A stretch of DNA of 47,099 nt from a bacterium (lineage in GTDB: Bacteria > Patescibacteriota > UBA1384 > XYA2-FULL-43-10 > JAKAMI01), in the NCBI GenBank assembly GCA_021812945.1, contig JAKAMI010000004.1:1-47099 (forward strand), written 5' to 3'. The position numbers and the translations under genes are program-made. The notes under the pieces were generated by a model. It was not told where the DNA came from and did no database searches. It saw only the letters and a program-made list of their open reading frames with translations. Each line of letters begins with the position of its first letter. Position 1 is the stretch's first letter. Shown one piece after another: positions 4,051 to 34,323 of the stretch.

Positions 4051-4139
4051 TGGCGGAAGGAGAGGGATTCGAACCCTCGATACCTTGCGGTATACACGCT
4101 TTCCAAGCGTGCGCACTAGACCAACTATGCGATCCTTCC
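4051..4139 (-). tRNA. tRNA-Ser(GGA)
   Basis: Acceptor stem GGAAGGA/TCCTTCC-GCCA; anticodon arm CACGC-TTGGAAA-GCGTG; long variable arm; GGTTCGAATCC T-loop. Confidence 0.96.
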
Positions 4140-32885: not shown

Positions 32886-33194
32886 CTACTCGCCTTCCGC
32901 CGGAGAGCACTGACCACCTTGGCCGTGCTGATCTGTCGAGGAATCACGCGGGGCAACGACCCACTCTCCGGTGGCGAGCCGGACGCAGGGGAGGTTTCGG
33001 GAACGCCGTGGTATCGGAGGAGCGCTCAGATCGGGGACCATTTCTCCGCTTGGGAGCCTCTTGCAGGGGTATATGGGCACATCGAGAGGCAGCGTGTAGG
33101 CTGCGCAGACGTCTTCGGGCGGCGGGGCGCCGGTGTTGCCGAAGAGATGACGGCGGGAATCATCAAGTTGCTTCTGGAATTTGGTATTATACAT
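32886..33194 (-). CDS. Pro-rich hypothetical protein with an internal repeat
   Basis: GAAGGAGG RBS; TTGACA-17-TAAACT promoter; PCKRLPSGEMV / PCVRLATGEWV repeat. Confidence 0.6.
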   Translation of the reverse strand: MYNTKFQKQLDDSRRHLFGNTGAPPPEDVCAAYTLPLDVPIYPCKRLPSGEMVPDLSAPPIPRRSRNLPCVRLATGEWVVAPRDSSTDQHGQGGQCSPAEGE

Positions 33195-33354
33195 GACAAC
33201 CCTCCTTCACTATAAGTTTAACAATAATTTGAGACTTGTCAAAAAGGGATATTTTTAGTATTGTCGTAGTGTCGTTCCCGAGTAGCCCCGATGTTTCGAT
33301 CGGGATCCCGACAAGCAAAGCTTCGTCGGGACTCAATGGGATCAAAAATGTTAT

Positions 33355-33658
33355 TCCCGAGTAGCTCAATGGCAGAGCAAACGGCTGTAGACCTATTGCA
33401 GCTCTTACAGGAAACTGTAAGATGAACTTTTTGGGATAACGGTGAAGGCTAAATTTTGTGTCATTCCCGCGAAGGCGGGAATCCACTCAACATGCTAATA
33501 CCGTGGGAACCCCGAGGAATCGGGGAGCGCCGTAGAGACTAGATACCAAAACACCTAAAATCGAAAGATCATGGTGAAGATATAGTCCACGCCATTATGA
33601 AAATAGTGGATAAAGTGTAACCGTTAGGTTGTCGGTTCGAGTCCGACCTCGGGAGCCA
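33355..33658 (+). tRNA. tRNA-Asn(GTT) interrupted by an intron (exons 33355-33388 and 33618-33658)
   Basis: Joined exons give TCCCGAG/CTCGGGA acceptor stem plus GCCA, GCTC/GAGC D-stem, AACGG-CTGT^TAA-CCGTT anticodon arm, GTCGG-TTCGAGT-CCGAC T-arm. Confidence 0.93.
33389..33617 (+). ncRNA. Group I self-splicing intron (229 nt)
   Basis: 5' exon ends in U, which pairs with G in P1 (GCUGU|A...UGCAGC); intron ends in G; R/S core GTAGAGACTAG and AAGATATAGTCC. Confidence 0.88.
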
Positions 33659-33662
33659 TAAT

Positions 33663-33690
33663 AAAATGATCACCTTTGAGTGGTCATTTT
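33663..33690 (+). terminator. Hairpin terminator after tRNA-Asn
   Basis: AAAATGATCAC...GTGGTCATTTT. Confidence 0.65.
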
Positions 33691-33754
33691 GTTATTCAGG
33701 CTTGAGAGAAGTTGGGAAAATTGATATGATCAGACTAGGATTAATGAAAAACTT

Positions 33755-34177
33755 ATGGATGAGCACAAAATTCGTATCTCGGCCAAGTGTTTTTGTTTCG
33801 ACAGCCAAGGCAAGGTTTTGCTAGTCAAAAGCAACCAAGGTGATTTCTGGTCTACCCCGGGCGGGGGAGTCGAGGAAAATGAAAGCTTGACCGCGGCGGC
33901 AAAAAGAGAGGTCATGGAGGAAACCGGCTACACCGTTAAGGTTGATCGGTTTGTCTTTATTCAAGATTATCAGACTAAGACATATAAAATACGCAATATA
34001 GAAGTCTTCTTTGTCGGCAAGATCGATGAGTCAATACCCCAGGCCACCGAGTACGACCACGAGTTTCGGTTTTTCACCGAAGAAGAATTCCTTAAATTGG
34101 TTTTTCGGCCGGAGGGAGTAAACCCGTTCAAACTGAGAGAAGTGGAAGGGGTGGAGTATGGCACATACCTTCGGTAA
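33755..34177 (+). CDS. NUDIX hydrolase
   Basis: Nudix box GGGVEENESLTAAAKREVMEETG. Confidence 0.92.
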   Translation: MDEHKIRISAKCFCFDSQGKVLLVKSNQGDFWSTPGGGVEENESLTAAAKREVMEETGYTVKVDRFVFIQDYQTKTYKIRNIEVFFVGKIDESIPQATEYDHEFRFFTEEEFLKLVFRPEGVNPFKLREVEGVEYGTYLR

Positions 34178-34191
34178 ATATCAATGTTGAA

Positions 34192-34323
34192 AAACTCTAA
34201 ACCCCAAACTCTAAACTCTAAAGAAATTCAAAAGTTAAAAATTACAAATCCAAAAATTTTTTAAGTTTTTTTGATTTTATTATTTTGAGTTTTTTTAGGA
34301 TTTAGAATTTAGAGTTTAGGATT
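34192..34323. repeat. Inverted arrays of AT-rich ~7-mers (AACTCTA / TAGAGTT) with no gene between them
   Basis: Left AAACTCTAAACCCCAAACTCTAAACTCTAAA; right TTTAGGATTTAGAATTTAGAGTTTAGG. Confidence 0.65.

Follow-up and report, generated by a model that had tools for sequence, protein, structure and literature searches.

The stretch of DNA analyzed here (the window) is the whole 47,099-nt contig JAKAMI010000004.1, contig C1 of a patescibacterial genome assembly (GCA_021812945.1) of 912,456 bp in 42 contigs that is estimated to be 95.9% complete. Between positions 33,355 and 33,658 of its forward strand, two tRNA exons flank a 229-nt insert, and we read this arrangement as a tRNA-Asn(GUU) gene that is interrupted within its own anticodon by a compact group I intron (Table 1). 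An initial annotation, made from the letters of the sequence, had proposed the same two exons as parts of one complete cloverleaf, an insert that follows U35 and ends in G, and a tRNA gene that standard finders would miss. All three proposals held when the locus was examined with tRNA finders, RNA family models and comparisons among relatives.

Joining the exons by script yields a 75-nt sequence that ARAGORN folds into a tRNA-Asn(gtt) cloverleaf; its acceptor and anticodon stems are perfect, with 7/7 and 5/5 positions, respectively, paired across both exons. When introns are allowed on the unspliced DNA, the same program returns tRNA-Asn (gtt) i(35,229). The 5′ exon is collinear with the intronless tRNA-Asn genes of four relatives, and the joined tRNA is identical to these genes at 62-68 of 75 positions, with U1, G73, the UCC... 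start and the ...GGAGCCA end in common. With the Thr, Asp, and Lys tRNAs of the same genome, identity is 47-58 of 75-77 positions; for the three tRNA-Thr genes it is 50-58 of 76, and the discriminator base of the Thr set differs. Under default settings ARAGORN misses the split gene, its sole tRNA call in the window being a tRNA-Ser at 4051-4139, and the Rfam tRNA model at its gathering threshold does not detect the gene either.

Table 1 Features of the split tRNA-Asn locus and related elements. Plain numbers are positions in the window; C, contig of this assembly; L, locus in a related genome (G).
Feature	Position	Strand	Description
Partial "ghost" copy	33270..33339	+	Partial copy of the tRNA gene's 5′ flank and first bases, from a repeat search
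5′ exon	33355..33388	+	34 nt, ending ...GGCTGT; acceptor 5′ strand, D arm, anticodon-stem 5′ strand, C32, U33, G34, U35
Group I intron	33389..33617	+	229 nt, without open reading frame; from the first base after U35 to omega G; starts with A, ends with G
P1	33384..33402	+	Exon GCUGU (33384-33388) with internal guide GCAGC (33398-33402)
P2	33404..33421	+	7-bp hairpin, GAAA loop; changes on both sides in all 7 pairs
P3	33429..33434 with 33546-33551	+	Covariation
P4	33439-33444 with 33499-33504	+	Encloses P5
P5	33448-33449 with 33494-33495	+	Extended loop
Dispersed palindromic hairpin repeat	33460..33486	+	27 nt, in the terminal loop of P5
P6	33505-33506 with 33530-33531	+	Found by hand mapping, minimum free energy fold and alignments
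P6a hairpin	33510-33525	+	GGAA loop
P7 5′ strand	33535..33541	+	Bulged A33536; pairs with 33583-33588, crossing P3 as a pseudoknot
P7 3′ strand	33583..33588	+	Pairs with 33535..33541
P8 hairpin	33552..33576	+	GAAA loop
P9.0	A33589-U33616 and C33590-G33615	+	Two pairs enclosing P9; omega G33617 is next
P9 hairpin	33592-33609	+	GAAA loop; covaries in both alignments
3′ exon	33618..33658	+	41 nt, starting TAACCG; U36, A37, A38, anticodon-stem 3′ strand, variable loop, T arm
3′ exon end			Acceptor 3′ strand, G73, encoded CCA
Inverted repeat, possible terminator	33658..33695	+	Directly 3′ of the CCA end, followed by a T-rich run; 16-nt arms, 88% complementary
Further repeat copies	Region of 46504; C6:15399/15437; C7:5202/5239; C27:7865/7903; C40:2185/2222		
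ORF-bearing longer intron	L007:1146-1463 (G013)		
ORF-bearing longer intron	L020:1704-2015 (G048)	-	

The insert matches the Rfam group I intron model RF00028 (Intron_gpI) at 33379-33609 on the plus strand (51.9 bits, E = 2e-10, model positions 1-253), above the gathering threshold of 50 bits, and scores 203.4 bits with R1, a covariance model of our own; searching the complete assembly with RF00028 recovers this match as well. Helices were mapped by hand from the Rfam alignment together with an alignment of ten short homologues. As the initial annotation had predicted, the 5′ splice site lies in a P1 helix with a U.G pair, here the wobble of U35 (U33388) and G33398, and this wobble is kept in 10/10 homologues; among 85 members of the wider family the pair at the splice site is U.G in 73 and C-G in 8. 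The two P7 elements named at that stage, GAGACTAG (33535-33542) and GATATAGTCC (33580-33589), are present and pair with each other as P7. Within this helix, the pair G33537-C33587 beside bulged A33536 is presumably the guanosine-binding pair, by analogy with the Tetrahymena intron. Motifs resembling tetraloop receptors occur in P8 (CCUAA...AUGG, which we take to be such a receptor-like element) and in P5 (GCUAA...AUGC). An unconstrained minimum free energy fold recovers P1, P2, and P4-P9 with a z-score of -4.3, and 0/200 shuffled sequences fold as well.

Covariation was evaluated in two alignments. The first, A2, was built with a MAFFT-based procedure from this copy and nine further short homologues in genomes of several families of one class. 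In A2, 96.7% of 509 cells hold standard pairs and 22/51 pairs change on both sides, mostly in P2, P3, P6a, P8, and P9; 0/500 shuffles reach either value, and sliding the 3′ partners by 1-3 columns lowers the paired fraction to 33-44%. Four of the six P3 pairs covary among these ten sequences, and all six P7 pairs are standard and invariant. The second alignment places 85 family members on R1 and, since it is fitted to that model, favours the structure, a bias from which the A2 count is free. Here 94.0% of cells are paired, 35/45 pairs change on both sides, and covariation reaches 0.531 vs 0.173 after shuffling (0/500 shuffles as high), with all core helices in the model, which leaves P7 outside, paired at 89.5-100%. 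P3 covaries at 5/6 pairs with 99.8% of cells paired, the outer four pairs of P8 are 100% paired with three covarying, and P9.0 is 99.4% paired, its C-G pair covarying (CG 54, UA 18, UG 5). In each of 24 intron-bearing rows, representing 15 distinct genomes, the last exon base before the intron is U and the omega base is G. The copy described here shows no decay: it deviates privately at 0 of the columns that do not vary among the other nine homologues. The P3-P8 core that the initial annotation expected to be foldable is therefore borne out by covariation in P3, P5, P6a, and P8 and by pairing in P4, P6, and P7, and the insert has a conserved, covarying group I fold.

The palindromic hairpin in the terminal loop of P5 shows in A2 as an insertion of 29 columns that is confined to this genome and missing from the other nine short homologues. 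The element is dispersed, with 29 copies in the 0.9-Mb genome that often form inverted pairs about 38 nt apart, and its architecture of about 27 nt comprises an 8-bp G+C-rich stem, a 4-nt loop, and conserved flanks. Near-identical copies are also present in many genomes that belong to other families within the order. By sequence, the repeat looks like a repetitive extragenic palindromic (REP) element or a miniature inverted-repeat transposable element (MITE). In one of the nine homologues (L009, genome G054), the P8 loop contains about 30 nt of inserted sequence forming a different hairpin (A2 columns ~206-235). Taken together, the P8-loop insert and the P5-loop repeat indicate that peripheral loops of this intron family gain hairpin elements repeatedly.

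The absence of a homing-endonuclease open reading frame (ORF), which had also been proposed at the outset, was confirmed, as no credible one was found in the 229-nt intron. The only ORFs of at least 40 aa that overlap it are a 44-aa frame on the plus strand and a 99-aa frame on the minus strand, and the latter has no match in a Pfam scan that covered it and not the 44-aa frame. Relatives have longer introns of 509-594 nt that carry a Cys/His-rich ORF of 103-105 aa between the 5′ splice site and the 3′ strand of P1, that is, in the P1 loop. When this HNH-like protein was used as a query, no homologue was found in the genome described here. Because the present copy has a minimal P1 loop without an ORF, and because a homologue of the relatives' protein was not found in its genome, it is probably immobile.

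The same arrangement recurs well beyond this genome. In the class, a BLAST search with the gene of one homologue matches 19/162 genomes at E ≤ 1e-8, this genome included. A strict junction test (exon ...CUGU, an intron whose last base is G, followed by UAA and a complementary stem) applied to 53 loci identified the split gene in 15 distinct genomes of the class and an uninterrupted gene in 2. A looser junction pattern gave many false long "introns", so that only rows with introns of about 185-260 nt were used, together with a tally from the alignment. In a sample of the phylum, 60/151 genomes match R1 at E ≤ 0.001; among the best 30 loci of this sample, 15 pass the Asn junction test, ARAGORN assigns 4 more to Asn or to an ambiguous Thr register, and the rest are other tRNAs or unresolved. 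Across species genomes, at least 119 stretches contain an exact match to an 18-nt core motif, and 20 of the 80 core-motif loci examined pass the strict Asn test. Among the matches listed, the motif records are mostly named Saccharibacteria, Parcubacteria/Paceibacterota, or other groups of the candidate phyla radiation (CPR). A few of the listed records are labelled Gammaproteobacteria, Bdellovibrio, or Bacteroidetes, which could be mis-binning or real spread.

Host tRNAs were tallied for the 85 matches aligned to R1. The junction CUGU...G/UAA of tRNA-Asn accounts for 22 of them, the window included, CUGU...G/CAC of tRNA-Asp for 28, and CUGU...G/AAA of tRNA-Tyr for 13; another 14 read G/UAA after first columns other than CUGU and are probably Asn, and 8 are other or cut off. 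These 14 presumably carry an ORF and have their true 5′ exon farther upstream. The sister introns in tRNA-Asp(GUC) (CUGU/C) and tRNA-Tyr(GUA) (CUGU/A), found in CPR-labelled genomes (loci L091-L170), share with the present intron an identical 18-nt P7/P3 core, the fold, a GCAG guide against the anticodon-loop CUGU, and the position after U35, and differ in the host tRNA. One intron family thus appears to sit after U35 in three tRNAs with GUN anticodons, a site that fits pairing of the GCAG guide with the CUGU that the three share. Asn, Asp, and Tyr tRNAs are among the queuosine-family tRNAs. The initial annotation had mentioned 35/36 insertions in Asn and Asp tRNAs as reported for Patescibacteria and had warned that the finding might not be new. 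Both remarks proved right, with tRNA-Tyr as a third host and the same insertion widespread in CPR/Patescibacteria-labelled genomes.

In the assembly, the split gene is the only tRNA-Asn found. Whole-genome ARAGORN reports 43 tRNA genes and a transfer-messenger RNA (tmRNA) gene, none of them tRNA-Asn, and a BLAST search with the intronless tRNA-Asn of a relative matches only the two exons and 20-nt pieces of two tRNA-Lys genes. These searches agree with the earlier premise of a single tRNA-Asn gene, under which splicing should be essential because the split gene is the assembly's sole source of this tRNA. In a profile search of the genome asnS was not found (best score 108.7 bits vs a cut-off of 342.6), and gatB is present (396.9 bits vs 314.8), so that the tRNA is probably charged by the indirect route from Asp-tRNA(Asn) to Asn-tRNA(Asn). 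The genome's tRNA-Asp and tRNA-Tyr genes are uninterrupted, and neither RF00028 nor R1 detects any other split tRNA in it. RF00028 also detects two group I introns within the 23S rRNA gene, at C9:30361-30586 (61.1 bits) and C9:31231-31437 (69.1 bits), both on the minus strand; the literature describes group I introns in 23S rRNA genes as typical of CPR bacteria. These rRNA introns, the small genome size, and the names of public genomes with the same intron core all point to Patescibacteria/CPR.

We consider it highly probable, at about 0.88, that the locus is a functional tRNA-Asn(GUU) gene and that the element separating U35 from U36 is a compact group I intron, without an ORF, such as occurs in the anticodon loops of bacterial tRNAs. 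Catalysis, self-sufficient splicing, and essentiality are what we infer from the sequence, and splicing from conservation. In the precursor, G31-U35 would pair with the guide GCAGC to form P1, whose U35.G wobble would thereby come to lie at the 5′ splice site. A free guanosine held at G33537-C33587 of P7 would then attack after U35. Subsequently, omega G33617, placed by the two-pair P9.0, would take over the guanosine site, and the 3′-OH of U35 would attack after G33617, joining U35 to U36 and restoring the anticodon loop CUGUUAA. The dispersed hairpin repeat would have settled in the peripheral loop of P5.

Several observations weigh against this reading. The RF00028 score lies just 1.9 bits over its cut-off. 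P4, P6, P7, P9.0, and most of P1 are invariant in A2 apart from one one-sided change in P4, and the invariant helices therefore neither support nor contradict pairing in that alignment. By visual inspection, a P10 helix with the 3′ exon forms poorly or not at all, and a 27-nt hairpin in the P5 loop might slow folding. Compared with the Pfam HNH model, the relatives' ORF scores 19.4 bits in one copy, below the cut-off of 21.4, and has no match in the other. A second tRNA-Asn could also lie in a gap of the assembly, which is in 42 contigs and 95.9% complete. In four DNA runs, the public contigs end inside the repeat (32900-33483 and 33460-34200) and none spans the intron. Among the sequencing runs listed as containing the stretch, which come from two studies, there is no RNA run, and the DNA runs are mine-drainage metagenomes.

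The weak P10 and the foreign hairpin in P5 are also what would be expected to favour a group I fold that is not truly self-splicing and needs a protein helper in vivo, and many natural group I introns do depend on proteins in vivo. We hold this to be unlikely here, as the core is complete and conserved and the intron has two GAAA tetraloops along with receptor-like motifs, a combination that usually gives compact tRNA introns autonomous folding. In addition, the searches revealed neither a protein encoded by the intron nor an HNH homologue elsewhere in the genome.

The three-tRNA distribution can be taken further. An intron family recognizing the CUGU of GUN tRNAs may have moved between non-homologous tRNA genes through its GCAG guide, by reverse splicing or HNH homing, and may have been kept, as the sole copy in streamlined CPR genomes, because tRNA maturation became coupled to it, for example through a link of the tRNA-Asn supply, and hence of indirect Asn-tRNA synthesis, to the guanosine nucleotide pool, which would make it more than a tolerated parasite. 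We regard this extension as improbable.

If the split gene were a dead copy, a working tRNA-Asn would have to reside in the unassembled ~4% of the genome. The fragmentation of the assembly leaves room for this, and tRNA-Ile(GAU) and tRNA-Ala(UGC) were likewise not found in it by whole-genome ARAGORN, so that some tRNA genes are probably unassembled. A dead copy is nevertheless decidedly improbable given the perfect exon stems and the lack of private changes at columns invariant in the nine homologues. Moreover, in the closed, one-contig genome of a relative with the same intron (G184), the split gene is the only tRNA-Asn-like match, a tRNA-Asn BLAST search there hitting the 3′ exon alone, beside the intron, and 15 genomes of the class have retained this arrangement.

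Because the repeat within the intron is where the contigs of the four DNA runs stop, the locus could in principle be an assembly chimera joined through it, and word depth in the community runs is about 1400-1900 over the repeat vs about 9 in its flanks, a more than 100-fold difference. A chimera is, however, very unlikely. The two contig sides overlap by 24 nt with no differences, they complement each other in five helices and two tRNA stems, the exon stems pairing fully and P3, P4, and P5 pairing across the junction, and, the repeat aside, the whole element is collinear with its nine homologues. The runs also contain contig joints from 33380 to 33617 (with 7 other letters between) and from 33388 to 33527, as well as loose ends reading TAACCGG... 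after 33388. As evidence for an intron-less allele of this organism they were rejected; they are consistent with other members of the community whose tRNA-Asn genes are uninterrupted or interrupted in a different way. One DNA run is without a contig over 33296-33339, from which we draw no conclusion.

A splice register two bases upstream, after U33 and with the 3′ site two bases before 33617, would give tRNA-Thr(UGU) and is the label (tRNA-Thr(tgt) i(33,...)) that ARAGORN attaches to many homologues because all copies end in GUG and so offer a G at the alternative 3′ site, but it is scarcely credible and was rejected, since U33 sits in a Watson-Crick U-A pair of P1 while the wobble falls at U35 in 10/10 sequences, the covarying P9.0 explains why GU is conserved ahead of the last G, the tRNA body including the discriminator base matches Asn and not Thr, a tRNA-Thr(UGU) is already present in the genome and searches of it gave no other tRNA-Asn, and intronless relatives read CUGUUAA at the same place.

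Other features surround the gene. The inverted repeat directly downstream of the CCA end may be a terminator and was not called by a consensus terminator scan. The only match of that scan in the region is the P2 hairpin of the intron, and we do not regard this hairpin as a terminator. The tRNA is preceded, at a distance of about 80 nt, by the "ghost" copy, in which 17 nt at 88% identity are followed by TCAATGG. A 45-nt insert of two hairpins, which occurs nowhere else in the genome, splits this copy, and the region has a folding energy of -31.7 kcal/mol. Ghost exons are at times called by ARAGORN in the vicinity of split tRNAs (Williams 2020, doi 10.1101/2020.01.27.920355). Gene neighbours encode a NUDIX hydrolase, a ZIP transporter, an SLT transglycosylase, and proteins without an assigned family; no homing endonuclease was found among the neighbours of the tRNA gene. 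Elsewhere in the assembly (C2:570-644 and C40:2720-2794), ARAGORN reports a tRNA with a two-base anticodon "(aa)" and a 75-nt "tRNA-Ser(aga)" that is short for Ser.

Default tRNA finders would report this genome as being without tRNA-Asn, a false hint of incompleteness or of an odd genetic code that recognition of the split gene corrects. The locus would also add one more very small genome that appears to rely on an RNA-catalysed step for an essential tRNA. That the P5 loop can accept a dispersed hairpin repeat, and that one intron family is shared among three tRNAs, is of interest for intron mobility; neither changes current understanding.

The finding belongs to a common kind and is not new, as intron-split bacterial tRNAs have already been catalogued. 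Williams 2020 (bioRxiv, doi 10.1101/2020.01.27.920355) raised the number of settings in which group I introns split bacterial tRNAs from 4 to 21, using Rfam Intron_gpI and ARAGORN with introns, and gives 0.49 split tRNA genes per genome for metagenomic assemblies of unnamed phyla. The introns described there share with the present one the anticodon-loop location, U at -1, and G at omega. By the naming rule of that study, under which CUU/...g/AAAA is Leu.3Ug, the intron reported here would be Asn.4Ug, a name that a full-text literature search did not find. In its main text the study describes neither this genome nor the P5-loop hairpin repeat, nor a single site common to Asn, Asp, and Tyr tRNAs. 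Lui et al. 2021 (PMC8172020) note that some CPR tRNAs hold group I introns that hinder detection. A literature search on group I introns and tRNA-Asn, judged by titles and the starts of abstracts, returned mostly organelle genomes and nothing on bacterial tRNA-Asn introns, and a separate search found no paper on anticodon group I introns in Patescibacteria.

The classical bacterial tRNA group I introns are in tRNA-Leu(UAA) at 34/35, tRNA-fMet at 33/34, and tRNA-Arg(CCU) and tRNA-Ile(CAU) at 36/37, all of subgroup IC3 (doi 10.1101/2020.01.27.920355). The intron described here resembles them in its compact size of about 200 nt, its place in an anticodon loop, and a P1 formed with anticodon-loop bases and closed by a U.G wobble at the splice site; like them, it is without P2.1 or P5abc and has GAAA loops on P2 and P9. 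Subgroup IC3 introns are compact, lack P2.1 and P5abc, and are held by L2-P8 and L9-P5 tetraloop-receptor contacts, and the Azoarcus tRNA-Ile intron serves as the structural model for bacterial tRNA group I introns. By this analogy, the architecture of the present intron is IC3-like. Unlike the classical introns, it resides in tRNA-Asn at 35/36, inside the anticodon itself.

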